From positions 97,774,001-97,838,000 of the forward strand of contig CM059435.1 in the NCBI GenBank assembly GCA_030390025.1: DNA of 64,000 nucleotides. The letters are read 5' to 3'. The DNA is from Squalus acanthias (taxonomy: Eukaryota). The notes below the pieces were generated by a model. The model did no database searches. It was not told where the DNA came from and saw nothing but the letters and a program-made list of their open reading frames with translations. Below are positions 1-57,448 of the stretch, piece after piece (the first letter of the stretch is position 1; the number at the start of each line of letters is the position of its first letter). The translations under genes were made by a program, and so were the position numbers.

Positions 1-1060
1 TCTAAAATAGTCTTCTCCCTGGTTGGTTCCACAGCGTATTGTTCCAAGAAATCATCCCTTATTCACTCTAAGAACTCTTCCTCAAGTCTACCTTTGCCAA
101 TTTGCTTTGCCCAATCAATATGAAGATTAAAATCTCCAATGATTATAGCCGTACCTTTCTTACAAGCCTCTATTATTTCTTGATTTATACTCTGTCGTAC
201 AGTGTGGCTACTGTTTGGGGGCCTGTAGACCACTCCCACCAGTGACTTCTTACCCTTATTATTTCCTATCTCCACCCAAACTGATTCTACATCTTGATCT
301 TCTAAGCCAATATCATTTCTCATTACTGCACTGATCTCATCCCTTATTAACAGAGCTACACCACCTCCTTTTCCTTTCTGCCTATCCTTACGAAATGGCA
401 AATACCCCTGAATATTCAGTTCCCAGCCTTGGTCACCTTGCAACCACTTCTCTGTAATGACTATCAGATCATACCCATTTATTTCTATTTGTGCTGTCAA
501 ATCATCTATCTTGTTACGAATGCTGCGTGCGTTCAGATATAGAGCTTTTAATTTTGTCTTTTTACCATTATTCCCTTCTCTGACCCCTCTTTCTGATGCA
601 CTCTTATGTGTATACGCTCTGTCCCTTCGTGTCACACTCTGGTTATCGTTACCCTTATCGCTACCCTGCACTTTTGCCTTCTCATTTTTCTTTGACTTTT
701 TTAATTTCCGCTCAGCGTATACCCCCCCCCCACCCCACCCCCCCACTATTTAGTTTAAAGCCCTATCTACAGCCCTAGTTATTCGATTCGCCAGGACACT
801 GGTCCCAGCCTGGTTCAAATGAAGCCCGTCCCAATGGAACAGCTCCGTCTTATCCCAGTACTGGTACCAGTGCCCCAAGAATCGAAACCCATTTCTCCCA
901 CACCCATCTTTGAGCCACTCGTTCATCTCTCTGATCTTATTTACCCTATGCCAATTTGCACGTGGCTCAGGTACTAATCCAGAGATTATTACCTTTGTGG
1001 TTCTGCTTTTTAATTTAGCCCCTAGCTGCTCATACTCCCTCAGCAGAACCTTTCTTTGTC
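1..1060 (-). mobile_element. CR1 LINE fragment: 3' part of ORF1 (SGNH esterase-like) plus start of ORF2 (APE endonuclease); runs off the window edge
   Basis: ORF 63..746 has APE motifs YLNARSI, VITEKWL, GVVYRPP and IIGDFN. The minus strand at ~760-1050 reads WDGLHLNQAG...RALN*, the DxxH motif of CR1 ORF1 esterases. Confidence 0.92.
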
Positions 1061-1232
1061 CTACCTTTCTTTGTCACACAGGGGGATCCCCACTAACCTC
1101 CGTTGATTTGAATTGAAGGTCGGAAAAGCCGAAGTTCTCGACACAGGGATCACGAGATCCTTGTGCGACGCGTACTTCGGGGCCAGCCGTGAACGCCTTT
1201 GCTTCGCTGCTGACCGCAAATTCTGAGCCATT

Positions 1233-2977
1233 GGCTGCGATTTCACCGACCAGGTCGGTGTCGCAGTCCCAGCCCACTGCCTACTGCAGCCCACACTCTC
1301 CAAGCGATTTTTCATTGGTTGGGCTTGTTAAGCCCGCCCTGCGAGATTCCCGACCAATTAATAGGAAGCGGGTCTGATGACGTCATTTGATGACGTGTCA
1401 TCAGCCAGTTTCCTTAAAGGGACTATGCACAAATTGATTTTGACAGTTCTGCTGTCAGTGTTCTACAGCATTGAGGTGCTGCAAACACTGACAATCACTG
1501 CACAGAGGTGCACGGCTGCACCCAGGCTCCCCCATGACTCCCTCCATATGCAGGAAGGTTCTCTTCCCTTCCCATGGGCGGAAGAGACCTCCCCAGGAGA
1601 TCAACGCAGCCTGGTTGCACATTGCACAGGAGAACACAAGCAGGGATTTCGTCAGGAGGACCAGGCTTCAGTGGCGCAAAACTTTCAATGACCTGAGCAG
1701 ATCACGAAACGTTACTGCCAAGCCACACGCAACCTCATCCTGCTGTGCCATTCATCACATCCCCATCACTCTGCCTTCCCTACCCGACTCCTGCACATCC
1801 TTACTCACACCAACTTACCTTGCACCTCCACCCATCCCTCTCTATCTACATTCTCACGTCCCCATCTCACTAGCCACCCCTCACACTCACCCTCAACCTA
1901 CTGCAAGCATACCAACTAATAACACACAAGGGTAGGTACTTGGGTGGTTTAGCCAATGTTCATGAGAAGTTTCTGTTAATGTGGTGTCAAACATTGAAAC
2001 CTTTATTTTCAGCACTTTGCCTTCTTGGACAGATTTGTGTGCACCTTTGGAAGTGGCTTAGTGAGTTCCAGTGAATGGTGAGACATAACGATAACCCCTC
2101 CGCCCCCCCGCCCCCCCACTGCAATGGTGACGAGTGTGAAAGGAATAGCTTGGGCATTTGTAGGGATGCTTTATGGTGTTGGTGCTGCTGGTGGTGCCAA
2201 CCTGGCACATTATGTAGCAGCCAGGGTGTACAGCATCAAGTGAAGTAAATCTGGCCATAGTGAGGCCATCCCTGGCATTCCAGGCAGCAATGTGGTCGGG
2301 TGCTGATGCCCTCTGTCCTGTGCAGCATCAGGTGCTTGCGGAGAAGGTTGGTATTGTTGTTGGTGATGTTGGTGTGCCTGGTGATGTTGGTGTTGGGAAT
2401 TCAGAGGACCAAGGTGAGATTTTTTCAAGGGCACCGATGTTGCTGGAATAGATGGCAGCTGAAGTTGAGATGACAGAAGCGATCTGTCAGTGGTGAGAGA
2501 GCTTGCTCCAAGGAGGTGACAGTGGCTAGAGAGTTTACTCCAAACACTTCCAAGCTGCATAAAGCTCAAAAGTGTCTTCCAATTCCTGAAGGCTCCAGCT
2601 TCTGACATTGGAAAGTGAACAGCTGTGAAATGGTAGCTTTTATACTACTTTTGCAGCTGTCGCCTATTCACAGCAATGGGGAGACATAGAGAACCCGACA
2701 CACTTACCTGACATGATCTCTGAATGTCGTGAAGCCTGTTAAAAAAGTGGTAAAATAGAAATAGGCTGGCAAAATAGTAGTTAACAAGCATTTAACTATT
2801 TTAAATGCCTCCCCTGCTGCTTGGTGTCGGGTCTGTTCTGAAATCACAGACCCGACACTTTGGAAACTTACATGGAGGCGGGTACGGAGCAGGTTCCCAA
2901 CCTGCTGTCAATCATTTCGATTTTGACAGTGGACCCGCCTCCGAACCCACACTGTGAGCACCGGCAAAATCGCGGCC
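1233..2977 (+). mobile_element. Non-autonomous PIF/Harbinger element (~1.75 kb family), copy A
   Basis: Ends GGCTGCGATTT / AAAATCGCGGCC; 3-bp TSD ATT (1230-1232, 2978-2980). Myb/SANT-like exon remnant on + (AAPRLPHDSL...AWLHIAQE...LQWRKTFNDL). Confidence 0.88.
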
Positions 2978-3184
2978 ATTATTTCTTCTTTATTCAATAT
3001 TCAGTGACTTGTCAGTTTCATTGGTATACATTGCTGCATTTCACTTGTTTTAAATGAAGCAACAAAGATAATCTGTATATACGGATGAAACGTCTGAACA
3101 ATGGAAGATTAATTTAAATGGTAGTGCAATTACTATTTTATCAGGAAATGTATTGTTTTATTAAATCCTAAGTACAATACAATC

Positions 3185-5822
3185 TTTTTTTTATTCGTTC
3201 CTGGGATGTGGACATCGCTGACAAGGCCAACATTTATTGCCCATCCCTAATTGCCCTTGAGAAGGTGGTGGTGAGTCGCCTTAATGAACCGCTGCAGTCA
3301 GCATGGTGAAGGTACTCCCACAGTGCTCTTAGAGAGGGAGTTCCAGGATTGTGACCCAGCGACTATGAAGCAACGGCGATATATTTCCAAGTCAGGATGG
3401 TGTGTGACTTGGAGGAAAACTTGGAGATGATGGTGTTCCCATGCGCCTGCTGCCCTTGACCTTCTAGGTGGTAGAGGTCGTGGGTTTGGGAGGTGCTGTC
3501 GAAGAAGCTGCAATGCATCTTATAGATGGTGTACACTGCAGCCACCGTGCGCCGGTGGTGGAGGGAGTGAATGTTTAAGGTGGTGGATGGGGTGCCAATC
3601 AAGCGGGCTTCTTTGTCCTGGATGGTGTTGAGCTTCTTGAGTGTTGTTCGAGCTGTACTCATCCAGACAAGTGGAGAGTATTCCATCACACTCCTGACTT
3701 GTGCCTTGTAGATGGTGGAAAGGCTTTGGGGAGTCAGGAGGTGAGACACTCGTCACAGAATAACCAGCCTCTGACATGGTCTTGTGGCCGCAGTATTTAT
3801 GTGGCTGGTCCAGTTAAGTTTCTGGTCAACGGTGACCCCCCAGGATGTTGATGTTGGGGGATTCGGCAATGGTAATGCCGTTGAATGTCAAGGGGCGGTG
3901 GTTAGATGCTCTCTTGCTGGAGATAGTCATTGTCTGGCACTTGTGTGGCGCGAATGTTACTTGCCACTTATCAGCCCAAGCCTGAATGTTGCCTGAGTGT
4001 TGTAGCTGTACTGGAACAGCTTGGCGAAAGGCGTGGCTAGTTCTGGAGCAAAAGTCTTCACCACGACAGCCGGGATATTGTCGGGGCCCATAGCCTTTGC
4101 TGTATCCAGTGTGCTCAGCGTTTCTTGATATTATGTGGAGTGAATCGAATTGGCTGAAGACTGGCTTCTGTGATGGTGGGGACCTCAGGAGGAGGCCGAT
4201 ATGGATCATCCACTCGGCACTTCTGGCTGAAGATGGTTGCAAACACTTCAGCCGTGTCCTTTGCACTCGAGTGCTGGGCTCCGCATCATTGAGGATGGGG
4301 ATGTTAATGGAGCCTCCTCCTCCCGCCAGTTGTTTAATGGTCCATCACCATTCATGACTGGAAGTGGCAGGACTGCAGAGCATTGATTTGATCCATTGGT
4401 TATGGGATCGCTTATCCCTATCTATAGCATGCTGCTTCCGTTGTTTAGCATGCATGTAGTCCTGTGTTGCAGCTTCCCCAGGTTGGCACCTCATTTTTAG
4501 TTATGCCTGGTGCTGCTCCTGACATGCTCTTCTACACTCCTCATTGAACCAGGGTTGGTCCCCTGGCTTGATGTTAATGGTAGAGTGAGGGATATGCCGG
4601 GCTACAAGGTCACAGATTGTGGTGGAATACAATTCTGCTGCTGCTGATGGCTCACAGCGCCTCATAGATGCCCAATTTTGAGCTGCTAGATCTGTTCTGA
4701 ATCTATCCCATTTAGCACGGTGGTAGTGCCACACAACATGATGGAGGGTGGTCCTCAGTGTGAAGTTGGGACTTCGTCTCCACAATGACTGTGCGGTCAC
4801 TGCTACCAATACTGTCATGGACAGACGCCTCTGTGACAGGTAGATTGGTGAGGACGAGGTCAAGTAGGTTTTTCCTTTGTGTTGGTTCTCTCACCACCTA
4901 CCACAGGCCCAGTCTGGCAGCTACGTCCTTCAGGATTCATCCAGCTTGGTCAGTATTGGTGCTACTGAGACACTCTTGGTGATGGACATTGAAGTCCCAC
5001 ACCCAGAGTACATTCTGTGCCCTTGCTACCCTCAGTGCTCCAAGTGATGTTCAACATGGAGGAGTACTGATTCATCAGCTGTGGGAGGGCGGTAGGTGGT
5101 AATCAGCAGTAGGTTTCCTTGCCCATGTTTGACCTGATGCCATGAGACTTCATGGGGTCCGGAGTCAATGTTGACGACTCCCAGGGCCACTCCCTCCCCA
5201 CTGTATACCACTGTGCCACCACTTCTGGTGGGTGTGACCTGCCGGTGGGACAGGACATACCCTGGGATGCTGATGGAGGAGTCTAGGACATTGGCTGAAA
5301 GGTATGATTCTGCTAGTATGACTATGTCAGGCTGTTGCTTGACTAGTCTGTGGGACAGCTCTCCCAATTTTGGCACAAGTCCCCAGATGTTAGTGAGGAG
5401 GACTTTGCAGGGTCGACTGGGCTGGGTGTGCCGTTGTCGTATCCGAAGCCGGTGCCGGGTGCTCCGTCTGGTTTTATTCTTATTATTGTTTCTTGTAGCA
5501 ATTTGTTACAACTGAGTGACTTGCTAGGCCATTTCAGAAGGCAGTTAAGAGTCAACCACATTGCTGTAGGTCTGGAGTCACATATAGGCCAGACCAGGTA
5601 AGGGCAGCAGCTTTCCTTCCCTAAAGGACATTAGTGAACCAGATGGGTTTTTATGACAATCTGGTAGTTTCATGGTCACCAAGCTTTTTATTCCAGATTC
5701 AGAAATTAACTGAATTAAAATTCCACAGCTGCCATGGTGGGATTTGAATTTACGTCTCCGGATTATTAGTCCAGGCCTCTGGATTACTAGTCCAGTAACA
5801 TAACCACTATGCTACCATTCCC
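3185..5822 (-). mobile_element. APE+RT non-LTR retrotransposon with tRNA-like 5' head, internally deleted (RT core missing near 3990), copy 1
   Basis: APE motifs (TNIWGL, DIVILAESYL, TTYRPP, LLDLVLTN). C-terminal MEYSPL...LHHRRTVAA. 3' end has AATAAA and an A-tail (T-run 3185-3192). tRNA-like head at ~5730-5822. Confidence 0.9.
5730..5822 (-). promoter_or_regulatory. tRNA-derived (Thr-AGT-like) Pol III-type head at the LINE 5' end
   Basis: A-box-like TAGCATAGTGG; anticodon arm CTGGA-CTAGTAA-TCCAG (5779-5795) with a duplicated arm (5758-5774); degenerate B-box ATTCAAATCCC. Confidence 0.7.
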
Positions 5823-6107: not shown

Positions 6108-7160
6108 TTAAAATATTCGTTCCTGGGATGTGGGCATCGCTGGCAAGGCCAGCATTTATTGCCCGTCCCTAATTACCCTTGAGAAGGTGGTGGTGAGCTG
6201 CCTTCTTGAACCATTGCAGTCCATTGTGGTGAAGGTACTCCCACAGTGCTGTTAGCGAGGGAGTTCCAGGATTTTGACCCAGCACCAATGAAGGAACGGC
6301 GATATACTTCCAAGTCAGGATGGTGTGTAACTTGGAGGGGAACTTGGAGGTGATGGTGTTCCCATGCGCCTGCTGCCCTTGTCCTTCTAGGAGGTAGAGG
6401 TCGCGGGTTTGGGAGGTGCTGCCGAAGAAGCCTTGGCAAGTTGCTGCAGTGCATCTTGTAGATGGTACACACTGCAGCCACGGTACGCCGGTGGTGGAGG
6501 GAGTGAATGTTTAAGGTGGTGGATGGGGTGCCAATCAAGCGGGCTGCTTTGTCCTGGATGGTGTTGAGCTTCTTGAGTGTTGTTGGAGCTGCTCTCATCC
6601 AGGCAAGTGGAGAGTATTCCATCACACTCCTGATTTGTGCCGGTGGGACAGGACATACCCAGGGATGGTGATGGAGGAATCTGGGACATTGGCTGAAAGG
6701 TATGATTCTGTGAGTATGACTATGTCAGGCTGTTGCTTGACTAGTCTGTGGTACAGCTCTCCCAATTTTGGCACAAGTCCCCAGATGTTAGTGGGGAGGG
6801 CTTTGCAGGGTCGACTGTGCCATTGTCGTGTCCGAACCGGTGCCGAGGCCGATGCCGGGTGGTCCGTCCAGTTTTATTCTTATTATTGTTTTTCGTAGCG
6901 GTTGTGTACAACTGAGTGGCTTGCTAGGCCATTTCAGACGGCAGTTAAGAGTCAACCACATTGCTGTGGGTCTGCAGACACATATAGGCCAGACCAGGTA
7001 AGGAAGGCAGATTTCCTTCCCTAAAGGACATTAGTGAACCAGATGGGTTCCCCCTGATACCCATTGACCAGCTGCCGTGGTGGGATTTGGTCTCACATCT
7101 CTGGATCATAAGTCCAGGCCTCTGGATTACTAGTCCAGTAAGCTAACCACTATGCTACCG
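6108..7160 (-). mobile_element. Bipartite ~1.05 kb deletion derivative of the tRNA-headed LINE (head + APE start fused to 3' tail), copy 2
   Basis: 6108-6640 matches the 3' end of copy 1; 6638-7160 matches its 5' part. The junction lies at TGCC (6638-6641). Confidence 0.88.
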
Positions 7161-7274: not shown

Positions 7275-8670
7275 TATATTCATTTATGGGATGTGGGCAT
7301 CTCTGGCAAGGCCAGCATTTATGCCCATCCCTAATTGCCCTTGAGAAGGTGGTGGTGAGCTGCCTTCTTGAACCACTGCAGTCCACATGCTGAAGGTACT
7401 CCCACAGTGCTGTTAGTGAAGGAGTTCCAGGATTTTGACCCAGTGACGATGAAGGAACGGTGATATATTCCCAAGCCAGGATGGTGTGTGGCTTGGAGGG
7501 GAACTTGGAGGTGGTGGTGTTCCCATGAGCCTGCTGCCCTTGCCCTTCTAGGTGGTAGAGGTCACGGGTTTGGGAGGTGCTGCTGAAGAAGCCTTGGTGA
7601 ATTGCTGCAGTGCATCTTGTAGATGGTACACACTGCAGCCACGGTACGCCGGTGGTGGAGGCGGTGAATGTTTAAGGTGGTGGATGGGGTGCCAATCAAG
7701 TGGGCTGCTTTGTCCTGGATGGTGTCGAGCTTCTTGAGTGTTGTTGGAGCTGCACTCACCCAGGCAAGTGGAGAGTATTCCATCACACTCCTGACTTGTG
7801 CCTTGTAGGTGGTAGAAAGACTTTGGGGAGTCAGGAGGTGAGATACTCGCCACACAACACCCAGCCTCTGACTTGCTCTTGTAGCCACAGTATTTATGTG
7901 GCTGGTCCAGTTAAGTTTCTGGTCAATGGTAACCCCCCAGGATCTTGATGGTGGACATTCGACGATGATAATGCCGTTGAATGTCAAGGGGAGGTGGTTA
8001 GACTCTCTCTTGTTGCCTGGCACTTCTGTGGCGCGAATGTTACCTGCCACTTATCAGCCCAAGCCTAAATGTCATCCAGGTCTTACTGCATGTGGGCATG
8101 GACTGCTTCTTTATCTGAGGAGTTGCAATTGAACTGAACACTGCAATCATCAGTGAACATCCCCACTTCTGACCTTATGAAGGAGGGAAGGTCATTGATG
8201 AAGCAGCTGAAGTTGGTTGGAACTCCTGCAGCGATGTCCTGGGCTGAGATGATTGGCCTCTAACAACCACAATCATCTTCCTTTGTGCTAGGTATGACTG
8301 CAACCAGTGGAAAGTTTTCCCCCGATTCCCAATTACATAAATTTTACTCGGGCTCCTTGATGCCACACTCAGTCTAATGCTGCCTTGATGTCAAGGGCAG
8401 TCACTCTCACCTCCCCTCTGGAATTCAGCTCTTTTGTCCATGTTTGGACCAAGGCTGTAATGAGATCTGGAGCCAAGTGGTCCTGGCAGAATCCAAACTG
8501 CGCATCGGTTAGCAGGTTATAGGTGAGTAAGTGCTGCTTGATAGCACTGTCGACGACACCTTCCATCACTTTGCTGATGATTGAGAGTAGAATGATGTGG
8601 CAATAATTGGCTGGATTGGATTTCTCCTGCTTTTTCTGGGCAGGACATACCTGGGCAATTTTCCACATTG
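7275..8670 (-). mobile_element. 5'-truncated copy 3 of the same LINE, retaining a degraded RT core
   Basis: WKIAQVCP...NPANY...LSIISKVME...QFGF...ALDIKAA in ORF 8369..8677; same 3' end as copy 1. Confidence 0.9.
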
Positions 8671-10805: not shown

Positions 10806-11254
10806 TCTATCTTGTGTCACGCAGGACACTCTGTAATGTAAAGCTTGCATTATGTACATCACAATTTAATTCCAATCTGCATCAAAACTAATAAGGGACA
10901 AGAGGTTGAAGATAGGCAGAATTTGTCAATCCAGACTTTGTTATCCAAATGCATTTCTCAAAAAAAAGTCATCCCATTTCAGACTATGTTCATTATATTT
11001 ACATTTAATATTTGTGGTTAATATAATTTGCTGAATTTTCTTCTGCTACATAGTTAAATTGAACGGTCAATAAATATTTTAGTTGCTTTTCCTTGTAGAA
11101 ACTTCATTTAGTGTTTAATAATCCACCATTGCTGAAATTTTAATCCAATAACCAGATTAGGATAATTGTTAATTCTCAAATCACACAACTCTGAAAGGAC
11201 AGATTATTGAAAAGGTGCAGCTTCCAAATGAGAGGAGGGGAAAGTCCACACCTA

Positions 11255-13002
11255 GGCCGGAATTTTCTTTACCTTGGCAGGTCCGGTGCAGACGGTGGCC
11301 GTGTTGGGTCCTGAGCCCATTGCTACCTTCATCCTGCTGTTGAAAATGAACTTACCTTAATGGGGCCTATTAAGTCCGCCCAGTGCATTACCCAGCCCAA
11401 TGAGATGGAGCGGGTCTGGTGACATCATTCATGACGCGTTTTCAGTCGGGATCTTTAAAGGGACCATGGCCACATTACATTTGAAATTTCATCTAACATA
11501 GTGCTGTCCGTGCACTACAGCATTGGAGTGCTGCAAACAGTGACTGCGCAGAGGCAGAGGGCTGCACCCAGGCTCTCCCATGACTCCCTCCATATGCTTA
11601 TGGAGGCAGTCAGAGCACGCAGGGAGGTCTCTTCCCTTTCGATGGGCGGAAGAGACCTCCCCAGGAGACCAAGACAGCCTGGTTGCAGATTGCAGAGGAG
11701 GTCACAAGCAGGGATGTGTTCAGGAGGACCTGGGTGCAGTGCCGCAAACGTTTCAATGATCTCATTAGATCAGAAAACGTTAGTACAAAATCAAACTCAA
11801 CTGCATCCTGCTGTGCCTCTCATCACATTCCCATCACTCTGCCTTCCCTACCCTACTCCTGCTCATCCTTACACCAACATACCTTGCACCTCCACCCATC
11901 CCTCTCTCTATCTACATTATCACATCCTCATCTCACTAGCCACCCCTCACACTCACCCTCATCCTAGTGCAATCGTACCAACTAACAACACACAAGGGTA
12001 GCCACTTGGGTGTTTTATCCAATGTTTATGTAAAGTTTCTGTTTATGTGGTGTCAAACATAAAAATCTTTATTTTCAACACTTTGCGTTCTTGGACAGAT
12101 TTGTGTGCACCTTTGGAAGTAGCTTAGTGAGTTGCAGTGAATGGTGAGACATAACGGTACCCTCCGCAATGGTGATGAGTGTGAAAGGAATGGCTTGGGC
12201 ATTGTAGGGATGCTTTAGGGTGCTGGTGTGGGGTGGTGCCAACCTGGCGCATCATAAGGCAGCCATATGGGTGTACAGTGTAAAGTTAACTAAATCTGGC
12301 CATAATGAGGCCATCCCTGGCCTCCCGGACAGCAATGTGGTCAGGTGCTGATGCCCTGTGTCCTGTGCAGCATCAGGTGATTGCGGAGAAGGTTGGTGTT
12401 GTTGGGGTGCATCGTGGTCCGATTCTGTGGACCAAGGAGAGATGTATAAATGGCACCCATGTTGATGGAATAGATGGCAGGTGAAGTACAGATGACAGAA
12501 GCATTCTGCCATTAGCGAGGGAGTTCTTCTAATGAGGTGACACTGGATGGAGACTTTGCTGGTAACACTTGCAGCCTGCAGAATCTGTGCTGGAAATGGA
12601 CTGAGCAACAGCTTCTGCCTGAGGAAAGTGATCATCTGTCAGGTGGGAGCTTTTATTGTACATTTCATGCTGTCAAGTAATCAGCTGGAGCAATGGTCAC
12701 GGAACTCCCGCCTTAGGTTGACAGACGTGGTTCCCGAGCTGCGTGAATCCTGTGGCCTATGCAGGGAAATTTAAAAAGTAAGTGAAAACAGGCTCTTAAG
12801 TGCCTGTAAACTACAGGATAATCATCTCAATTGGGTCCCCCGCCGCTGCTAGTCGGGTCGGCTCCGCGATGACAGACGCGCCTGGGGGAAAGGCGCGTGG
12901 GAGCAAGATGACAGCGGGTTCCCAACCTGCGGTCAAAAATAACAGCTTTCCCACCCAACCCACCACCAATCTCGCCCGCTACCACCCCGGAAAATTCCGG
13001 CC
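11255..13002 (+). mobile_element. Non-autonomous Harbinger element, copy B
   Basis: Perfect 13-bp TIR GGCCGGAATTTTC / GAAAATTCCGGCC; TSD CTA (11252-54, 13003-05). Myb-like RAAPRLSHDSL...RTWVQCRKRFNDL. Confidence 0.92.
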
Positions 13003-13844
13003 CTAGAAATTGCTGTCAAACTAACAAAGGGAAATAACTGCCAGTATCAATCAACTTGGTGTTGTGTACAAGTCATCAACATCATTTGTTACTAATTCAG
13101 TATTTTGTTCTACAGTCACAACTCTGAAATAGACCGTTTTCTAGTGATACTGTAGCTTTATTTGGTGTAAGATGCTTTGCTGCAGTGGGGGATGGACAGA
13201 GCAGTAAAGCACAACAGCTGATTTCCATTGCACCCAAACTACTGCACAAGCACACAGCACTAGGCAATAACATGAAGTCGAAAATGTAGCACTGCCATCC
13301 ATCATTTTAATGAGAACAAAAGTGATTTTAATTCAATATGTGATGCTGAAAACATGAAAATTAAAATTAAATAAAAAAAACTGCAGAAACAAATTAACAC
13401 TTCTTACAAATGGCATTCAAAAACCGTAAAGTTCAATTTCTATCAGGTCTTCTATTTTTAACATAATTGCAGACTTCTTTAAATTTTTGTTTGTGGGAAT
13501 TTTGATTTCATTAAGTTGAAGGATGGTAATTCTGGGGGATTTAACAATATTTTCCTAATTGCAGGACGAAGCTCTCTTTGGTTAGGTATGAGATAGGTTT
13601 GAACTGGAAGCTTCTTGATCTGTTGCCATTGTGACATTTGCTATTTTCAATACCATTTATCTTTAAGCCTTTTATGAGTGAAATTAAATAACTGCTGGCA
13701 TGGACTCAAATCGCTGAAACTGATAAGATTCATGAAATTTGTCACAATAGACAAGTTTTATTATTACTTTTGTTTTATGCTTCCTCTGCAGAACCAAGAT
13801 TACTCTGGAAAATCCTATGATCTTACCTGCAAAATATAAGAACT

Positions 13845-17444: not shown

Positions 17445-18620
17445 TTTTTTTTAATTAATTCATGGGATGTGGGCATCGCTGTCAATGCCAGCATTTATTG
17501 CTCATTCCTAATTGCTCTTGAGAAGGTGATGGTGAGCCGCCTTCTTGAACCGCTGCAATCCGTGTGGTGAAGGTACTCCCACAGTGCTGTTAGGGAGGGA
17601 GTTCCAGGATTTTGACCCAGCGACGCTGAAGGAACGCCAATATATTTCCAAGTCAGGATGGTGTGTGACTTGGAGGGGAACTTGGAGGTGATGGTGTTTC
17701 CATGCGCCTGCTGCCCTTGTCCTGCTAGGTGGTAGAGGTCGTGGGTTTGAGAGGTGCTGCCGAAGAAGCCTTGGCGAGTTGCTGCAGTGCATCTTGTAGA
17801 TGGTACATACTGCAGACACAGTGCACCGGTGGTGGAGGGAATGAATGTTTAAGGTGGTGGATGGGGTGCCAATCAAGCGGCTGTTTTGTCCTGGATGGTA
17901 TCGAGCTTCTTGAGTGTTGTTGGAGCTTCACTCATCCAGGCAAGTGGAGAGGTGGAAAAGGCTTTGGGGAGTCAGGAGGTGAATCATATGCTGCAAAATA
18001 CCCAACTTCTGACCTGCTCTTGTAGCCACAGTATTTATGTGGCTGATCCAGTTAGGTTTCTGGTAATGGTGACCCCCCAGGATGTTGATGGTGAGGGTTT
18101 CGACGATGGTAGTACCATTGAATTTCAAGGGGAGGTGGTTAGACTCTCTCTTGTGGGAGATCGTCATTGCCTGGCATTAGAGTGGCATGAATGTTACTTG
18201 CCACTTATCAGCCTAAGCCTGAATGTTGTCCAGGTCTTGCTGCCTGCGGGCATAGACTGCTTCATTATCTGAGGAGTTGCGAATGGAACTGAACACAGTG
18301 CAATCATCAGCGAATATCTCCACTTCTGACCTTATGATGGTGGGAAGGTCATTGATGAAGCAGCTGAAGATGGTTGTCCTGAGGAACTCCTGCAGCGATG
18401 TCCTGGGGCTGAGATGATTGGACTCCAACAACCACAACCATCTTCCTTTGTGCTAGGTATGACTCCAGCCAGTGGAGAGTTTTCCCACTGATTCCCATTG
18501 ACTTCAATTTTACTAGGGCTTCTTGATGCAACACTCGATCAGATGCTGCCTTAATGTCAAGGGCAGTCACTCTCACCTCACCTCTGGAATTCAGCTCTTT
18601 TGTCCATGTTTGGACCAAGT
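17445..18620 (-). mobile_element. 5'-truncated copy 4 of the tRNA-headed LINE family
   Basis: ALDIKAA, FINDLP, FADD and LHHRCTV motifs; same 3' end. Confidence 0.9.
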
Positions 18621-19229
18621 CTGTATTTCCTGGGGTTTACTTTTGTTACACGTAATTGATTCCTTTTTTGTCCCCAGTACTTTTTCTCAGGTATCATTGC
18701 ACCCAGACTCCCATTTCCTTCTTCTGCTTTGGGTTTCCAGGCACCTTTCCCTTTTATGCATATAATTACTTTATTACAGATGGACAAATTTAACCTTATC
18801 CTGTTAAATAAACTGGATCTCTGTACTGTTAATATAACAGTGTGCCAAGCAATTTAACAGGCAATATAAAGATTTTTTTCGGAAACATTGTTATTGGGCA
18901 GGATGGTGACATTATTTATAAATTGTTTTTAGCTGCAAAATAAATTATTTGGATGGAATGGTAAACTGTACGTGTTTCTGCCTTATCCTGCAATTAAGTC
19001 TGAAAATAGGCTTTACAGGTCCTGCACAGAGAAATACAAGTTACGCTCCTTCCTTATTAATTTTTGTACCTTGTATATAATTGATTCCTATCCATTTACT
19101 ACTATCAATAACTTCAAATCTTACTTACATTCAAATATATATGCTACAGGTATCCAGTAATTTGCCATTTAGGAAACCAAAAAGACTGTCTACCTTCATC
19201 ACTATGTAACACTGTATCAAAATCTTTAT

Positions 19230-20055: not shown

Positions 20056-23043
20056 AACAGCGGACTGCGTTGAAAACACCAAGGCTAAACAAAGCCTCCA
20101 GTTATAGAACAACTCGTTTTCCCCTTCTTGAAAATGGATTTTGTTTTTGAATTGTTAATTACAGTATGTTCAAAATATAACAGAACTCCACTATTTCAGC
20201 TGATATTTATTAGTCAGTAGTACTTCCACAATTAATTGGCGTTTAAAAAATTAATCTCCACAAAATATTAACATGTTAATCGCAGAAGTTAACTGAGATT
20301 AATTGACACCCCTACTTATAATGTGAGCCTCGTTTGCAGAACCGTGACATTTTTTGTAAACCAATTAGTCTTCAGTTTGAGCTTGTATTCCTGATTAGCT
20401 CCTACAGTGCCTCATCTAACTTCTGTGTTTTTCTGAATTAATGATGTGAAATTATATCTACGTTTCAAAATCTGTAGAATATTAATATTGTAAACATGCT
20501 GGAGGCAGTTTTTGTCTTATTATTACACACTGTTTTTGCCCAGATGTGTGATTTGACCCAATCCAGATTGCCCAGAAACTAGGGGACAGTGGGGTGGGGC
20601 GGAGATTTCCAGGTCGCCAGAGCTCCCATCTGAAACAGATGGGACCTTCCGTTACATACTGAAAGGGAGGCGAGGAAGAGCACCACCCTATTTTCCAGCC
20701 TGCAGGATGCCAGATGCCGAGCTCCGAGCGTGCCTGTGGAAACCTGGCAGACCTGCAGGTGGGTGGGCCTTCTGAAGAACCGTCCAGCATAACAGTTAAA
20801 GGCCCATAGATTAAAACAGTATGTGTTTTTCAGGGCTTTTAAAGGCCTTTCTTGTATTTTATTTACTGCAAGCACTTAGGTTTCCCTGAGTCTTTGTGCA
20901 AGTTGTCATTTATTTATTACCCCACCACCCCGCTCTATTGGCACCAGAGAGTTTGCCAATAGGGATCCCCTGAGCTGAGGAAGAGTACAGAGGGTGCCAG
21001 GCATCTCAGGCTGCCCAAGAGTTGCTGCATGCCTTCCCATCCACATCTACACCACCACATTTGCAAAGAGAGGTAACATGCCTTGCTTCGACAGACATTG
21101 TGCTGGTTGGGACTTTTCTTCCCAAAGCAGACCTCCCCCAGTGGCTTCACTTCAAGACATGAATGCCTCACTAACTGTTACGCTGGAAGGTTCTTCAGAA
21201 GCTTCCAATCACAGCATGCCATGCTTTACATATTACTACCTGAAGGAAAGCCTGTCACGGTGTTCAGGAGCCAGTGTTACCTGTTTGGCTGTACCTGCCA
21301 AGATGCCATCAATCATTTCTGCAGGCCCAAGAAAACAACCTGGGAATGACCGTGACAACCTGCCTTCTCACGGCCTGGGTCATCAAAGGGGCATGTGTTC
21401 AGCTGTGCCATCTGCTGCAAGAATACTTGTGGCTGCCATGCAGCATAGATCTTGCCGTGTGCACAAGGACAGCAATGGTCAGCTGTGGCCTGAAACCTGA
21501 CTGCACCTACTTGCAGGCATGCTGCAGTGCTGACTAATAGGATAATGCCGTAGAGTGGCACTGAGGGCAACCCTACTTGTGAGCATCTCATGCCGCGCCA
21601 CTTAGAATTCAACAGCCCTCAAAGAGGAGGACGGGCGCTGGGTTGTGCCATCATTTGTCTTTCTGAATTTTAATCCCTTTCCTTTAATTGTCCCCTTCTC
21701 TTTAAACTTGATTTGCAAAGGATTTTCCTCTCATACCAGCAGCATAATCCCTGGACCCATCTGAGTATGCAGCAGGAGATGTGAGTAATTATGCAAATAG
21801 GTTTAGACTAGAGCATTGAGTGTCATTTGCACTTGTAGTTCAAGCAGTCTTAAGGCAGTACAAACTAAATGAGAACAGACTTACACCTGAAGGTGAAAAC
21901 TGGTCCCATTTTATTTGCTACTTTTAATGCAAAAATATAGCAATATTCTCTCTAAAGTTTTTGAATTTGTGGCTATGGTTAGTCTAAATGCCAATACAAG
22001 GTGTTTTTCTTTTTTTTCAAATTCCTTTTATTTTGAATTCCTTTAACCTAAATACATCTTACAAGGTTACTGTACAATTTATAACACAGTACAGTACTTA
22101 GAGGTCTGCATTGTTACATAGTGGGATGCATTGGGTGGTCAGTACATTGTGCACACATGAGCACAGTGCATTGGTGGAGGATCAGGCCTATTTGGCAGTG
22201 GTTCCTGTGATTTGTTCCATTCAGGGGGTATGAAGGATCTTCCAGATGGCCCTGTGGTGTTGTGACATTTAGTGAGATATTCTGCATTTTCATTGCCCAT
22301 GTTTGGGATGTTTCTGGATGGCCTGGAGCAGGAAATATGTTAGGGAGCCATTCCACCAAGATCCCAACCTCTTGTGGAAATGATGGCAGGCATTGAACGC
22401 ACATGCACACTTTAGGGTGGGCCAATGCAAATTGTAGATTAACGATGAGAAAACAACATCTAACATATTTGCTGTCTTCAACAACTTAGCAGTGCTGGGC
22501 ATCAGGAATATTGCTCTGTTCCTTGCATCCAGCAACAGAGGAGGGTTTCAAAAATGAAAGGGTTGCCTTGCTTAGCGATCAATTGCAGTAGGCAGTGCAG
22601 GGTATTTAAAATATTTTTTTAAGAAACATTCTTGTCAGCCGACCCCTGCTGAAGCAGGCAATCTGGCAGTGGAGGAAATAACACTGGACAGGAAAATCTA
22701 GGCTTTTGTCTTTTGTGGAGCAGTTCAGACAGCATTGTTAGTTTGTGACTTTGTTCTGAATTTCTTGAGGGATGGACTGAGTATGTGTAGGCTGTGGGTG
22801 AGTCAGATAGGCTTGCAGGAATGGGCTCAAGACTGCTTCATATTTCATGAGTTCTTTACATCGTCCTCTCCACTAGTATATTTCCCAACAGTGTTTCATC
22901 CATGTGTTTTTAATGGGGAGGGTTGTGAATCATCACAGTTGGGGTCTTGCAGGTAGCAGTAACATTTGCACTAGCCTATGTATTACAGGGCGAATTTTCT
23001 CCTTAGCCGGTAGGCCTAGCAGGCTCAGATCAACCAGGATTAT

Positions 23044-24795
23044 AGGGGGAATTTTTCAGGGGGTCAGTGGGTGCATTCGGTGGCAGGTCGAGTGGGGAAA
23101 CTTTTTTTTGACAGCGGGTCAGGAACCCACTGTCAACCCGCTGCCAAGCGACTTTCGCAGATGTTGGTTCTGTCAGGGCCGAACAGACCCGACATGCAGC
23201 GGCAGGGGAGGCAATTCAGGTCATTATGACCTTGTTAACAGCCCATTAAAAAGTATTTTGAGCTCACCTTACCATTTTACGAGGTCGTCCATGCTGCTTG
23301 GGGATCACGTCAGGTAAGGAGGTCGGGAGTTGTATGACCATGGGATCATCTCATTACTTGACAGCTGCAAATGTGCTATAAAAGCTCCCATCTCACAGCT
23401 GTTCACTTTCTAAGCTCAGAAGCTGTTGCTTACCGCATTTGGAAGACAGATTGAGCTTTATGCAGCTTGCAAGTGTTTGGAGCAAACTCTCTATCCAGTG
23501 TCACCTCATTGGAACAACCTCTCTCATTGCTTCTGTCATCTCAAGTTCACCTGCCATATATTACATCAGCATCGGTGCCCTTTAAACTATCTCACCTTGG
23601 TCCTCAGAATCCCACCACGATCAGCCCCAACACCAGCAGCACCAGGCACACCAGCTGCACCAATAACAACACCAACCTTCTCTGCAATCAACTGACGCTG
23701 CACAGGACACAGGGCATCAGCACCCGACCACATTGCTGCCCGGGAGCCAGGGATGGCCTCACCATGGCCAGAGTTACTTCACTTGACGCTATACACCCTG
23801 GCTGCTACATAACGTGGCAGGTTGGCACCACCCCACACCAACACCATAAAGCATCCCTACAATGCCCAAGCCATTCCTTTCACACTCATCACCATTGCGG
23901 GGGGTACCGTTATGTCTCACCATTCACTGCAGCTCACTAAGCCACTTCCAAAGGTGCACACAAATCTGTCCAAGAATGCAAAGTGTTGAAAATAAAGGTT
24001 TCAATGTTTGACACCACATTAACAGAAACTTTACATGAACATTGCATAAAACACCCAAGTGCCTACCCTTGTGTGTTGTTAGTTGGTATGATTGGACAAG
24101 GATGAGGGTGAGTGTGAGGGGTGGCTAGTGAGATGGGGAAGTGATAATGTAGGTAGAGAGGGATGGGTGGAAGAGCAAGGTAAGTTGGTGTGAGTAAGGA
24201 TGTGCAGGACTAGTGTAGGGAAGGCAGAATGATGGGGATGTGATGAGTGGCACAGCAGGATGAGGTTGAGTGTGGCTTTTAAGTAACGTTTCGTGAGCTA
24301 CTGAGATCATTGGACGGTTTGCGCCACTGCAGCCTGGTCCTCCTGACGACATCCCTGCTCATGTCCTCATGTGCAACCAGGCTGCGTTGGTCTCCTGGGG
24401 AGGTATCTTCCACCCATGGGAAGGGAAGAGAACCTCCCTGTGTGCTGTGACTCATAAGCATATGGAGGGAGTTATGGGAGAGCCTGGGTGCAGCCGTGCA
24501 CCTCTGTGCAGTACTCGTCAGTGTTTGCAGCACCTCAATGCTGTAGAACACTGACAGCACAACTGTCAAAATCAATTTGCGCATGGTCCCTTTAAGGAAA
24601 CCGGCTGATGACGCGTCATCAAATGACGTCATCAGACCCGCTTCCTTCAATTGGCCGGCAAACGTGCTGGGCGGGCTTACCAAGCCCAATCAACATAAAA
24701 TCATTCTACAAAGCGGGCTGGAGCCAGCAGCAAGGTCGGGACCTGCCACCGACGCTGCCCGCCACAGACCCGCCGAGGTTGGGGAAATTGCGACC
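23044..24795 (-). mobile_element. Non-autonomous Harbinger element, copy C (inverted relative to A, B, D)
   Basis: Collinear reverse complement of copy A; flanked by TAT (23041-43, 24796-98); TIRs degenerate. Confidence 0.85.
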
Positions 24796-26249
24796 TATGA
24801 CTCTGTGTTGTCTTCCAAATTGTTGCCCTGAGAGTTCAGCAGTGCCTCCTTCTGGCTACAGGACTCCTACGTTTGTCTCCTAGAGAGGGGTGGAATTTCT
24901 GGACTAGATGTGGCATGCACTATACTTGATGTATTATCTTGACCTGCCATTCACACATGCTCCTGCAGGTAGTACTTCTGAGCGTTTACTTCTATACTTC
25001 TCCCCAATGTGGAGGCAGGGCCTAATTTGAAAATCATGGCTCGATGGGAGAACCGCACAGTGCCAAAACTGCGTGAAACCTGCCGTGAGGAAGCAGTTCT
25101 CCCCCGACTGGACTCAGCTCTGCAACCCCCACCCCTAGCACTTATCTTATAGCAGGACCGTTCCCTTCAGTTCCTGGCGATGTCCAGCTCCTGCCCCAAT
25201 TCCCACTCCCGGCCGGCAGCCTTGACGTCCTTTCCCCCAGCTTTAGGCTTGAGATGTTTAAATGAATCCCCGTAGCTAAGATGGCCCAGGCTTTACGCCG
25301 AGGAGCCTGTGCGTGACTCCCACCTACCCCAAACGCGTCCCAAGTTAAAATCAGGGCTGCAACTTCTGGATCGTAGAGGAATCTGTGAAACGATTTAGAA
25401 AATAGTTTTATAAAAACCTAAAATTGTTTAACACTTATGCACTCAAAGCAAAAATCTAATTTATGTAACATTGTCCCAAATGTAAATACATCCTACCATG
25501 TTCCTGGAAAAAAAACCCTAAAGAAATAAGATAATTGAAATGATGTTAGTTACTGTGACTGGTGCATAGAATTATTTTTACAAAGGTGCAGCGTGTGCAG
25601 ATGTCTCCTGTCTGACAGTTTTTTCCTGCTTGAGAGGGAGCATCCAGCCATACAAATATGTTGGATAATCACCAGAATGTCAGAGGCGATATGGTCAGAA
25701 TGGCATGCCGCTGCAAATTATGTGGGAATGCCCCTGATGCACTCCATCCTGGGGACATGTGGTAGTACAATTCTATTTATAATCCTGGCCAATTTTTGTT
25801 CAAGATAATCAAGTATCCATATGCTTAGCTGAATGTGCTAACCTATGAATGTCATTGTAACCTTGGCTACTAACCTTTGTATTGGAATCCCATTGTGTGC
25901 TATCCCTGTGACTAAATTGCACCAGTCAATATTTGAGAATACTTGGAGGACTGCATTGGAATATCTGCAATAAAATTATGGATATTTTTAATTCAGTCCA
26001 ACAATATTGTGATTTTTTTTGTTTCATACATTTCTCTAATTCTGCATGATATTGTTTTATTGAAATATTTTAGTCACTAATTCTTGTGCATGTTTTATGA
26101 AAAATGATACGCAGTATAGAATGCTGAAGCAGTCTATTGGTACTGAAAGCTTTAATGTTGCAATCGGCAAGTAGATATATGCTGTGAAATTGGTCTCTTC
26201 GAATGTTAGCGCACAAGTATTTATTGTGTTTGTATGTAAAATTCTTTTA

Positions 26250-30790: not shown

Positions 30791-33030
30791 ATTTTTTTTC
30801 ATTCATGGGATGTGGGCATCGCTGGCAAGCCCTAGCATTTATTGCCCATCCCTAATTGCCCTTGAGAAGGTGGTGATGCGTCGCTTTCTTTGAACCACTG
30901 CAGTCTGTGCGGTGAAGGTACTCCCACAGTGCTGTTGAGTAGGAAGTTCCAGGATTTTGACCCAGTGACGATGAAGGAACGGCGATATATTTCCAAGTCA
31001 GGATGGTGTGTGACTTGGAGGGGAACTTGGAGGTGGTGGTGTTCACATGTGCCTGCTGCCCTTGTCCTTCTAGGTGGTAGAGGCTGTGAGTTTGGGAAGT
31101 GCTGTTGAAGAAGCCTTGGCGAGTTGCTACAGTGCATTTTGTAGATGGTACACACTGCAGCCATGGTGCGCTGGTGGTGGAGGGAGTGAATGTTTAAGGT
31201 GGTGGGTGGGGTGCCAATCAAGCGGGCTGCTTTGTCCTGGATGGTGTCGAGCTTCTTGAGTGTTGTTGAAGCTGCACTCATCCAGGCAAGTGGAGAGTAT
31301 TCCATTATACTCCTGACTTGTGCCATGTAGATGGTGCAAAGGCTTTGGGGAGTAAGGAAGTGAGTCACTTGTCGCAGAATACCCAGCCTCTGATCTGCTC
31401 TTGTAGCCACAGTATTTATAAGAACATAAGAATTAGCAGGAGTAGGCCATACGGCCCCTTGAGCCTGCTCCACCATTCAATAAGATCATGGCTGATCCTC
31501 GACCTCAACTCCACTTTCTCGCCCAATCTCCATATCCCTTGATTCCCCTGGACTCCAGAGTTTAGTCTAGTTACGTTTCTGGTCAATTATGACCCCCAGG
31601 ATGTTGATGGTGGGTTGATTCGACGATGCGAATATCGTTGAATATCAAGGGAAGGTGGTTAGACTCTCTCTTGTTTGAGATGGTCATTCCCTGGTATTTG
31701 TGTGGCGCGAATGTTATCAGCCCAAGCCTGAATGTTGTCCAGGTCTTGCTGCATGCGGGCACGGACTACTTCATTATCTGAGGAGTTGCGAATAGAACTG
31801 AACACTCTGCAATCATCAGCGAACATCCCCACTTCTGAGCTTATGATGGAGGGAAAGTCATTTATGAAGCAGCTGAAGGTGGTTGCCCTGGTGGTTGACA
31901 CTGCCTTGAGGAATTCCTGCAGCGATATCCTGAGGCTGAGGTGATTGGCCTCCAACAACCACAACCATCTTCCTTTGTGCTAGGTATGAATCCAACCAAT
32001 GTGACTTCATTTTTAGGTACGCCTGTTGCTGCTGCTGGCTTGCTCTTCTACACTTCTCAGTGAACCAGGGTTGGTCCCCTGGCTTGATGGTAATGGTAGA
32101 GTGAGGGATATGCCGGGCAATGAGGTTACAGATTGTGATGGAACACAATTCTACTGTTGCTGATGGCCCACAGCGCCTCATGGATGCCCAGTTTTGAGCT
32201 GCTAAATCTGATCTGAATCTATCCCATTTAGCACGGTGGAAATGCCACACAACACGATGGAGGGTGTCCTCAGTGTGAAGACGGGTCTTCGTCTCCACAA
32301 TGACTGTATGATGGTCACTCCTACCAATACCATCATGGACAGATGCATCTACGACAGGTAGATTGGTGAGGACAAGGTCAAGTAGGTTTTTCCCTCGTGT
32401 TGGTTCTCTCACCTCCTGCCCCAGGCCCGGTCTGGCAGCTATTTCCTTCAGGACTTGGCCAGTTCAGTCAGTAGTGGTGCTCCCGAGCCACTCTTGATGA
32501 TGGACATTGAAGTCCCTCACCCAGATTACATTCTGTGCCCTTGCTGTCATCAGTGCTTCTTCCAAGTGGTGTTCAACATGGAGGAGTACTGATTCAACAG
32601 CTGAGGGAGGGTGGTAGGTGGTAATCAGCAGGATGTTTCCTTCCCCATGCTTGACCTGATGCCATGAGACTTTATGCGGTCCGGAGTCAATATTGAGGAC
32701 TCCCAGGGCCAGTCCCTTCCGACTGTATACCACTGTGCCGACACCTCTGGTGGGTCTGCCCTACCGGTGGGAGAAGTCTGGGATGTTGGCTGAAAGGTAT
32801 GATTCTGTGAGTATGACTATGTCAGGCTGTTGCTTGACTAGTCTGTGGGACAGCTCTCCCCATGTTGGCACAATCCTCAGATGTTAGTGAGGAGGACTTT
32901 GCAGAGTCGACTGGGCTGGGTGTGCATTTGTTGTGTCCAAATCTGATGCCAGATGGTCCATCCGGTTTTGTTCTTCTTATACTTTTTTGTAGCAGTTTGG
33001 TACAACTGAGTGGCTTGCTAGGCCATTACA
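30791..33030 (-). mobile_element. Copy 5 of the tRNA-headed LINE family; internally deleted (~32000) and ending just short of the head
   Basis: APE (TTYHPP, DFNVHH, LLDLVLTN, SDH) joined to late RT (FADD) and the 3' end; 5' flank matches 5400-5540. Confidence 0.9.
31418..31560 (-). mobile_element. CR1 3' tail inserted into LINE copy 5
   Basis: ATAAGAACATAAGAA...GGAGTAGGCCAT...ATCATGGCTGATC interrupts otherwise collinear LINE sequence. Confidence 0.8.
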
Positions 33031-33269
33031 GAAGCCAGTTTTACAGAAGAGAACCAATAACGCCCATATTAATTTTTCTTCATATGGATTTGATGTGTTT
33101 AATTAAAAATTGTATGCAGAATTGTCATTTTAGTTAAACTGCTTCACTTTTTACAATTACAGTAAAACATGTAGAAGTCAAAATGTTGAGGCTTGCTGGT
33201 GCTGCATTTCACCTATTTGGTTTATTTTCATTGAGTAATTGCACGTTTCATTTGAGCTGTAAGACCTAT

Positions 33270-56040: not shown

Positions 56041-57448
56041 TTTTAAGTAAAGCAGTAGATCGTCCCAAGTGCTAAAAGGTGAGTTGGGATATGTATGGCC
56101 AGTAGAGCTGAAAAGTGCAGGCGGAGTCTTGGTTCAAGTCAAGGTATGGAAACTTGGGCAGTGTGGATACAAATTGTTACATTGGATTTAATGAGTGTCA
56201 AATTATAATGGGTCTTTTGTGGCGTAGTTATGGATTATGTGTCTGTCGCACAACATGGTTAGATAAAGAAAGGAATCTCTGATGGTTATGGATTGCAGTT
56301 AGAAAAATAGATAAATATGTGATTCTGAGCCTCTTGGGTGCTTTGTTGTATTATAATTCGAAATAGAATAATTGAGAATCAGAAGCGTAGATAATATACA
56401 AGAAAGGAAACTGCATGTAAATATTAGAACTAGTGAGTAGATAAACATTGGAAATGTATATAAATACATGGAGCAATATACATGTCTGAATATATGAAAT
56501 TATTACGTTAACGAGAGGGCTGCAGAACAGGTGTGGAAAGCAGCAGGAAGTGGAGCATGTTGCTGGGGAGTGGGAGCAGTGGAGCCAGAGGACAAGACTT
56601 GGAGCAATGGAGAGTGATTGGGAGGGGGGAGAGGGGCTAGTTAAGTTTGAAGCCAGGAAACAAGACCAGGTTTAGTCAAGGTGGTAATAGGATCCGGTCA
56701 TGTTGATTAAAAAGCAAGTTAATTTTCTTTCTGCCTGGATCTGGGTGTTTTTCACAGTTCGAACACTGAACCAATAAAAAAACTGGAAAATGAGTCTAAC
56801 TAATCAATAAGTAAGTTAGTGCATGAGTCGACAGACACGGAAAGTTATATCGATATATTGTAAAGTAACCGGTGGTAATAAACAGCCAAAAGTAAAGTTT
56901 AAAGAAATGTTGGGGGGATATTAACTCCCTTCACCTAGCAGAAACTTGGCAGTATGGAAGTTCAAATCAAAGCGGTAGACTTTCTGCCCCGAATTACTCG
57001 GGCGGGAGCCTCAGGAATACATTTAAATCAGGGCCCCGTTACCAAGATAGGACCCCAAAGCTATTTTTATGGTCTACAGGACGGACCATCCATCATGAAC
57101 ACTCCACCGTATACAACCTGTTGGCCAAGATGCCCTCAAAGGTAGGTGAAAAAAATATTTTTGAGGAGCCAGGAGGAGCAGGGACGCCTATTTAGGACGG
57201 GGAGCTCTCTGGTTTTATTTAAATAAGGTCCAGCCCTCAAAATGGTCCTGGCATCTCACTGCACCTCCTAGTGGGTTGGCTATCAAGATATATCACACAC
57301 GTAGGCCGCGATTTTCCCGACCTCGGCGGATCAATGGCGGGTCGCGGCCTCGCTGCTGGCTCCATCCTGGCCTCCGACATGACTTTCCCCTGATAGGGCT
57401 AGTTAAGCCCGCCCAGCGAGTTTCCCGGCCAATTGAAGGAAGCAGGTC

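Follow-up and report, generated by a model that had tools for sequence, protein, structure and literature searches.

Can a long interspersed element (LINE) that encodes its own enzymes carry the tRNA-derived head of a short interspersed element (SINE), and how would such an element be transcribed and translated? This question is raised by copy 1 (Table 1), a retroelement on the minus strand of a 64,000-nucleotide (nt) stretch of the Squalus acanthias genome (assembly GCA_030390025.1, contig CM059435.1, positions 97,774,001 to 97,838,000; referred to as the window). A preliminary description, made from the letters of the window, had reported two tRNA-like heads, each followed closely by an apurinic/apyrimidinic endonuclease (APE) reading frame, and a third copy sharing the downstream leader. 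These features were confirmed: copy 1 has its 5' end at 5822 and the head of copy 2 lies at 7160, the A box at 5814 and the stem-loop around CTAGTAA at 5795 are present, and copy 3, which starts at 33040 with nt 289 of the family, does possess the downstream leader. The NIWG codons of the APE frame are found at 5391, and the approximately 430 nt that separate them from the start of copy 1 leave no room for a first open reading frame (ORF1). The B box, described as decayed, is so in the window copies only and is intact at nt 72 of the family majority, and a tandem doubling of the anticodon arm (second arm at 5774) had been missed. Copy 1 itself is dead, since family nt 1-1847 are fused to nt 2485-3301 and the missing 637 nt (1848-2484) include the reverse transcriptase (RT) core motifs QGS (aa 663) and FADD (aa 690); stops, frameshifts and three private runs of four T (T4) have been added. 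We consider it probable that copy 1, dead as it is, represents a Zenon LINE with a single ORF that occurs in sharks and rays, and that the master of this LINE carries a tRNA head, is likely to be transcribed end to end by RNA polymerase III (Pol III), is likely to start translation at a codon other than AUG, and is likely to generate SINEs by internal deletion.

A family majority of 3301 nt was built from 18 copies that measure 3.2-3.35 kb; the 9 remaining head-to-tail loci, which carry insertions or deletions, were excluded. Behind the head of this majority, the leader occupies the sequence up to nt 329. A single open frame of 969 codons follows (nt 330-3236), and the 3' side closes with a stem-loop and a short A tail. 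The copies are 93-96% identical to the majority. APE and RT motifs are present in the majority frame, and Pfam matches to both were obtained with real copies. This 969-codon APE-RT frame is under purifying selection: non-CpG variants shared among copies were synonymous in 31 cases and non-synonymous in 17, as compared to 270 and 1065, respectively, for private variants (Fisher p 9e-11). As the shared variants are strongly synonymous, the masters needed their own protein. As a separate observation, the annotated shark gene models P0001, P0002, P0173, P0178 and P0179 (exoribonuclease 1, JmjC-8, aldo-keto reductase, SVEP1-like and others) hold Zenon-derived protein stretches, due to either exonisation or annotation error; a first protein search had returned only two host gene models with Zenon pieces.

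The expectation that the family may already be present in repeat catalogues was correct. Elasmobranch Zenon consensuses (CarCar, HypSab, RhiTyp, ScyCan and SquAca _Zenon) have been reported by Stuart et al. 2026 (PMC13343379), and, in a comparison by eye, the initial ~345 nt of SquAca_Zenon-1 (3314 characters) agree with our majority at nearly every letter. The text of that study describes Zenon as ORF1-less with a poly-A tail, and because this is normal for Zenon, the absence of ORF1 is not the surprising part of the preliminary description. In line with this assignment, the S. acanthias family has a single ORF with APE and RT, no ORF1, short A tails, and the above identity with a Zenon-placed consensus over the first ~345 nt. 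In an RT tree that did not include a named Zenon protein, it was set apart from host CR1 at 100/100 and grouped with mostly unnamed single-ORF relatives of 34-39% identity. Membership in canonical CR1 was considered and rejected, given that the element has no esterase ORF1 and that its RT falls outside vertebrate CR1. The host CR1 of which a piece is found in the window shares with it the APE-RT ORF of the CR1 group but differs in having a GDSL esterase ORF1, in showing only 25-31% protein identity, and in not avoiding T runs. The main text of Stuart et al. never mentions tRNA, polymerase III or Pol III, contains SINE only in a reference, and does not describe the head, the T-run avoidance, the missing AUG or the partner SINE (PMC13343379). 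Our literature search found no tRNA-headed or Pol III-driven autonomous LINE and no report of the ~430-bp SINE, although Repbase, Dfam and subscription journals were outside this search, so that absence from print is not shown. The family is thus a catalogued LINE with an apparently undescribed architecture.

Is the head part of the master element, or was it placed in front of a few copies by chance? When the genome was searched with head plus APE, 37 of the 40 best matches started at the same base, give or take ~8 nt. This query is biased toward head-bearing copies, and the search was therefore repeated with an APE-only DNA query. Among the 30 loci selected in this way, which include the one in the window, the head is reached by 11, and the other 19 break off at various positions from nt 42 to nt 436. 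No upstream sequence in register is shared among the 19 loci that stop short of the full head, and none of the 30 extends into an ORF1 or has an alternative 5' end. The flanks were unrelated at 30 inspected loci, except for one triplicated locus. Both head and tail were present in 27 of 37 fetched loci, 18 of which measure 3.2-3.35 kb.

The preliminary description had proposed to look for target-site duplications (TSDs) spanning the unit from head to A tail. No duplication of at least 5 bp abutting the ends was detected in any of 41 copies (of 44, 3 were dropped because their tail could not be parsed), and 3 of the 41 had one of at least 4 bp (p 0.08). A loose search for at least 7 bp gave 2 of 27 copies compared to 23 of 702 controls, a stricter pass on 24 copies gave one with 5 bp (L037), and in the SINE subset described below there were none of at least 5 bp and one of 4 bp among 18, which corresponds to chance level. 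TSDs are not required, as blunt and truncated target sites are among those described in PMC4494074. Because the TSD test was uninformative, an empty-site test was used instead, in which the whole unit is removed in silico. This removal rejoined an interrupted repeat at 6 of 24 LINE and 6 of 22 SINE loci, compared to 25 of 600 mismatched pairs, and the rejoined empty sites show a few bases duplicated or lost. A head bounded by its own TSD, as left by a SINE inserted into a LINE, was not found among these copies. The common 5' end, the lack of any extension into ORF1 in the APE-selected loci and the clean removal of the unit from other repeats support the earlier proposal that the head belongs to the master, and the head, the 969-codon frame and the A tail move together as one 3.30-kb unit. 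In the mechanism that we envisage, the protein would bind the 3' stem-loop, and insertion would occur by target-primed reverse transcription with duplications of 0-4 bp or small deletions.

Two further observations concern the insertion and spread of this unit. Several copies (L035, L077, L083, L084, L090, L094 and L258) lie at or beside another SINE's 3' end, each time of the same TATATAAATG type, which hints at a preferred target. One internally deleted Zenon copy (nt 1628 to 2100; L134-L137 and ~20 equal-score matches on contigs C29, C53, C470, C1494 and others) has been amplified within a larger duplicated unit.

A clear link emerges between this LINE and a SINE of ~430 bp, which at 29 of 30 loci consists of nt 1 to ~300-333 joined, through several junction types, to nt 3189-3206 and the remainder of the 3' end. 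This short, non-coding form with a tRNA head and a 3' tail in common with its partner LINE corresponds to a SINE2. It is built from both ends of the LINE, which agrees with the preliminary idea that the family could be both the engine and the source of a SINE. Two ages of SINE can be distinguished, namely, a young class with ~94% and an older class with ~88% identity to its own majority; in the latter, the anticodon arm is not doubled and the junctions reach as far as nt 343. Some 20 different internal deletions were observed among the LINE copies. The simplest reading is that repeated internal deletion of the head-bearing LINE made the SINEs; as deletions are frequent and would retain promoter and tail, the derivatives would be ready-made SINEs.

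The reverse order of events is an alternative that we regard as unlikely. According to it, the SINE came first, Zenon captured its whole 5' module, and the present SINEs keep the ancestral module with swapped tails instead of being deletion products of the LINE. That the head was gained at some point is indicated by the hagfish and coelacanth Zenons, in which none was seen by eye within the first 400 nt, and because of this the head must at some early time have been captured from a SINE or a tRNA; the addition of a head to bipartite LINEs is a known route in the account given in PMC5786205. Furthermore, the older single-arm heads reside mostly on SINEs: at 29 loci, sampled as matches to a query that covers mostly flank plus head, 19 join the tail and 2 run on into the APE. 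Against swapped tails, the SINE junctions differ on both sides (nt 300-343 at the 5' side, nt 3150-3245 at the 3' side), and some retain the first codons of the ORF or its last coding nucleotides. The doubled arm and the ~94% identity are moreover common to young SINEs and young LINEs, and a SINE-first origin can itself be reconciled with an early capture after which deletions occurred repeatedly. Apart from these classes, single-arm heads at L188, L190, L267 and L279 lead into another abundant SINE, of which body and tail are present, and represent either insertions or chimeric SINE families.

Which polymerase transcribes the LINE? The family majority contains an A box at nt 9 and an intact B box at nt 72, separated by the two tandem anticodon-like arms, and thus has the internal boxes of a type-2 Pol III promoter at a spacing that such promoters tolerate. 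Oligo-T is the standard Pol III terminator, according to PMC4494074, and the sense strand of the majority (3301 nt) has no T4, in contrast to 15 A4 runs. This lack of an internal terminator is part of a general avoidance of T runs. T4 density in raw copies is 0.11 per kb, as opposed to 2.3-4.7 in host CR1 pile-ups. At synonymous third positions where T would create a run of 1, 2, 3, or 4 and more, T was chosen at 140 of 473, 40 of 226, 5 of 54, and 0 of 6 sites, respectively (p 0.0015 when runs of 1 and 2 are compared with all longer ones), and no comparable fall with run length was seen for C, A or G. Five CR1 pile-ups, which overlap and are not independent families, take T at 7 of 24 to 17 of 25 of the run-4 sites. 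T3 is likewise depleted, with 5 instances as compared to 11.3 expected from shuffles (P 0.004). We therefore state as an observation that the sense strand avoids T runs, and, judging from boxes and sequence composition, consider it likely that Pol III transcribes the LINE from its tRNA-derived head. TFIIIC would bind the A and B boxes, and Pol III would read through 3.3 kb, because selection would have removed T4 terminators, to stop at the first T run in the flank.

The tRNA from which the head derives appears ambiguous on the basis of the alignments. The two window heads alone were not called as tRNA genes by ARAGORN and scored 17.8 and 17.2 bits with the Rfam tRNA model (cut-off 29), whereas the older single-arm copy L216 was called a full tRNA by ARAGORN. 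The proposed origin from tRNA-Thr(AGT) is not established, as host tRNA-Gln aligns equally well; with few retrieved isotypes compared, the scores were 58-62 for tRNA-Gln and 57-60 for tRNA-Thr(AGT). The Rfam search of the host had returned tRNA-Lys and tRNA-Cys genes only, and Gln and Thr genes were added for this comparison. In the second arm (family nt 49-69), three published shark consensuses differ from this family by changes on both sides of the stem, as seen by eye, which suggests a conserved RNA hairpin over mere promoter spacing. It was also noted that tRNA-Thr(AGT) genes are arranged in tandem arrays with ~2.06-kb spacing, and tRNA-Lys(TTT) genes at ~1.8 kb (C26:41.6-44.0 Mb, C2208 and C29).

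A Pol III RNA would be uncapped, and the start of the open frame is unusual as well. The first in-frame Met is codon 283, and the APE starts at codon 39. The in-frame TAA at nt 327-329 is the upstream limit of the open frame, and in 50 of 87 copies the stops just upstream are TAG and TAA. From a GCT codon (nt 336), the distance to the APE is a multiple of 3 in 77 of the 87 copies (modes 105, 108, 117 and 120), whereas a non-coding control stretch has length modes of 100 and 101; as a sign of coding, this spacing has no more than supportive value. Arg is abundant in the stretch, as it is in the predicted Met-started N-terminus of the relative P0079. An in-frame Met is present in 10 of the 87 copies, in six of them at the ACG codon that follows GCT, as expected from CpG decay. 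This ACG, considered as a near-cognate start, occurs in 41 of 87 copies, but was discarded because the older subfamily has ACA. We envisage that the uncapped RNA would be translated from a start just after the TAA with the help of the conserved leader, the core of which is nearly unchanged across five published shark and ray consensus groups (by eye). Two leader sites, nt 309 and 316 (window ~5526 and ~5519), vary far above background and across subfamilies (nt 309: T in 52 of 76, C in 15, the others G; nt 316: C in 43 and T in 25), for which gene conversion, many masters, or a modified base misread in reverse transcription are possible reasons.

The leader contains the loop C-T-AGC-A-A, and the cognate GCT is located 12 nt beyond the stem. 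AGC is conserved in 79 of 87 copies as well as in the consensuses that have been published, and GCT is found in 61 of 87, with its CpG product ACT in another 15. This recalls pseudoknot I of the intergenic-region (IGR) internal ribosome entry sites (IRESs) of dicistroviruses, the likeness being an anticodon-like AGC loop 12 nt upstream of a cognate in-frame GCU at the place where a Met-less ORF must start. The differences are considerable: only 3-4 pairs are present, without covariation or folding support, no upstream pseudoknots were identified (no pseudoknot model was built), loop position 33 varies between T, C and G with no compensatory change, and the hairpin, although seen in the majority fold, did not form in the folds of two real copies (z 0.07 and 0.57). 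By analogy, a tRNA-mimicking fold with loop AGC pairing to GCU might start Met-less translation, which we offer as a speculation with weak support for the mimicry. The complete scenario, an autonomous vertebrate retrotransposon outside Pol II, cap and AUG, with an uncapped 3.3-kb Pol III RNA and a factor-independent AGC/GCU start as in the dicistrovirus IGR IRESs, is similarly tentative.

The ORF might alternatively start at an AUG, which we consider doubtful: either at nt 303, in a good Kozak context and with read-through of TAG and TAA, or at nt 358 with frameshift or re-initiation. ATG303 lies in frame, most copies have it, and both stops are followed by CAA; CAG or GAG accompanies TAA in 17 of 87 copies, and a few older copies are free of both stops. 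However, a frame open from ATG303 exists in 1 of 87 copies only, the older class has GTG at this position, and the whale-shark consensus is 1 nt shorter in this region (counted by eye). The conserved ATG at nt 358, which is out of frame (+1) and opens an upstream ORF, occurs in published shark and ray consensuses, but was rejected as a start, as 33 of 87 copies have ATA and a whole amplified subfamily, including copy 1, has lost the ATG.

Several results weigh against the picture of a Pol III-transcribed LINE with a non-AUG start. Taken alone, the absence of T4 is not significant (1.8 expected from synonymous shuffles, P 0.12; dinucleotide shuffles, P 0.20), and one TTTT occurs within an AT-rich stretch of the older SINE majority. 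T-run avoidance could be a trait of all Zenons, since the comparison was made with host CR1 only; a head-less Zenon was sought in this genome as a control and none was found, the diverged matches being old copies of the same lineage. As to translation, the 3n length variants sit in short direct repeats and an AAT-type repeat, which would favour 3n slippage anyway, and the folding of the leader core is not superior to that of shuffled sequences (z -0.86). Finally, none of the 150 best protein matches is an intact copy, and the longest open frame has 619 aa.

The weakness of the T4 count is one of the points in favour of transcription by Pol II, from a weak promoter of the element's own or by host read-through. 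The head would then be a processing or protection signal, for instance for an RNase P-type cut by which the sharp 5' end would be set, and T runs would be avoided for reasons of RNA stability or RT slippage. Judging from the A box at nt 9, the 5' end of the family indeed coincides to within one base with that of a mature tRNA, the older single-arm head can fold as a full cloverleaf, and the lepidopteran Zenon and its short internally deleted element (SIDE) are without a Pol III promoter in the description given in PMC6740152. Nevertheless, we judge transcription by Pol II to be improbable: in the young family the acceptor stem is poorly paired, yet the B box is intact, the avoidance concerns T runs specifically, increases with their length and is not shared by host CR1s, and A4 runs, although equally prone to slippage, are not avoided. 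That the long form is non-autonomous, a SINE 5' module with a start-less Zenon ORF moved in trans by an unseen AUG-bearing Zenon, would fit the lack of an in-frame AUG, the two in-frame stops and the SINE/LINE breakpoint near the start of the open frame, but is highly improbable and largely refuted by the selection on the 969-codon frame. No alternative 5' end was detected in the 30 APE-selected loci, and all seven published elasmobranch Zenon consensuses begin with the same head.

With respect to known systems, one parallel is that of the lepidopteran Zenon and the SIDE Persaeus (Wang et al. 2019, PMC6740152), where a ~3.3-kb single-ORF LINE of the CR1 group has repeatedly been deleted internally to give short elements with the 5' and 3' ends and poly-A. 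Persaeus is described there as lacking tRNA homology and a Pol III promoter, whereas the shark LINE carries a tRNA head and its deletion products are true SINE2-type elements. Another parallel is that of Bov-tA/Bov-A/Bov-B, SINE2-1_ACar/Vingi-2_ACar and CoeSINE4, which combine a tRNA head, a LINE 5' UTR (untranslated region) and a LINE 3' end (Kojima 2015, PMC4494074; Kojima 2018, PMC5786205). In the accounts of these bipartite-LINE SINEs, the head is found only on the non-autonomous derivative and the donors are only RTE and Vingi (PMC5786205, PMC4494074, PMC7245038); in the shark, the head is on the autonomous Zenon LINE. The cartilaginous-fish SINEs HE1, SacSINE1 and SINE2-1_CM appear with CR1-type partners in the SINE table of PMC3747384.

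Transcription by Pol III is what defines SINEs, and Pol II mRNAs define LINEs, a line that a self-mobilising Pol III LINE, if true, would erase. It would also provide a vertebrate example of a natural Pol III transcript that is protein-coding and several kilobases long, for which a cap-independent, non-AUG translation start would be forced, and a one-step route from LINE to SINE, visible in two age classes, in which each internal deletion would be an instant SINE. The compact module of promoter plus leader could be useful by itself. The family is a major part of the shark genome: together with its SINE it accounts for 24,617 of 400,000 bases (6.2%) in 40 evenly chosen 10-kb stretches, which contained 4 head-bearing LINE copies and 4 SINEs, corresponding to roughly tens of thousands of each genome-wide. 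The window alone holds five pieces of the Zenon family, as detected by blastn.

Table 1. Zenon pieces and related features of the window; nt numbers refer to the family majority.
Feature	Position	Strand	Basis
Copy 1, 5'-complete dead Zenon LINE with tRNA head and internal deletion	3185..5822	-	blastn to family majority: 92% and 91%
tRNA-derived head, nt 1 to ~88	5735..5822	-	Rfam/sequence comparison
A box TAGCATAGTGG, nt 9-19	5804..5814	-	sequence and match to family majority
First anticodon-like arm CTGGA-CTAGTAA-TCCAG, loop CTAGTAA	5779..5795	-	sequence and match to family majority
Second anticodon-like arm, tandem duplicate; missing in older single-arm class	5758..5774	-	sequence
B box, two changes in copy 1; intact at nt 72 of majority	5740..5751	-	sequence
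Conserved leader core, nt ~185-328; retained in SINE	5509..5645	-	sequence comparison
Candidate start region: putative hairpin with loop CTAGCAA (5531-5517), in-frame TAA (5508-5506), in-frame GCT codon (5499-5497)	5497..5531	-	hairpin without folding support
ORF 5' part: Arg-rich N-terminal extension, APE domain (NIWG at 5391), linker; broken by stops/frameshifts	3996..5505	-	translation; Pfam APE in better-preserved copy L288
ORF 3' part, after 637-nt deletion	3250..3989	-	match to family majority
3' end: predicted stem-loop and short A tail, in common with SINE	3185..3260	-	sequence, folding
Copy 2: head (nt 6-98), leader and APE start (186-595), fused to 3' end (2768-3294)	6114..7160	-	match to family majority
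5'-truncated copy, nt 1861-3294, with RT fragment	7277..8670	-	match to family majority
5'-truncated copy, nt 2072-3301	17446..18625	-	match to family majority
Copy 3: begins inside leader (nt 289), internal deletion 1354-2222, small unrelated insertion near 31420-31565	30792..33040	-	match to family majority
Canonical CR1 piece: GDSL esterase ORF1 fragment, then APE	63-1073	-	

Apart from these elements, the window contains another repeat family, the members of which are 74-86% alike and occur in both orientations (1306-2911, 11253-13008, 23040-24797 and 57335-61771). The open frame of this family at window positions 1492-1935 may encode a Myb/SANT-like protein, as in Harbinger transposons.

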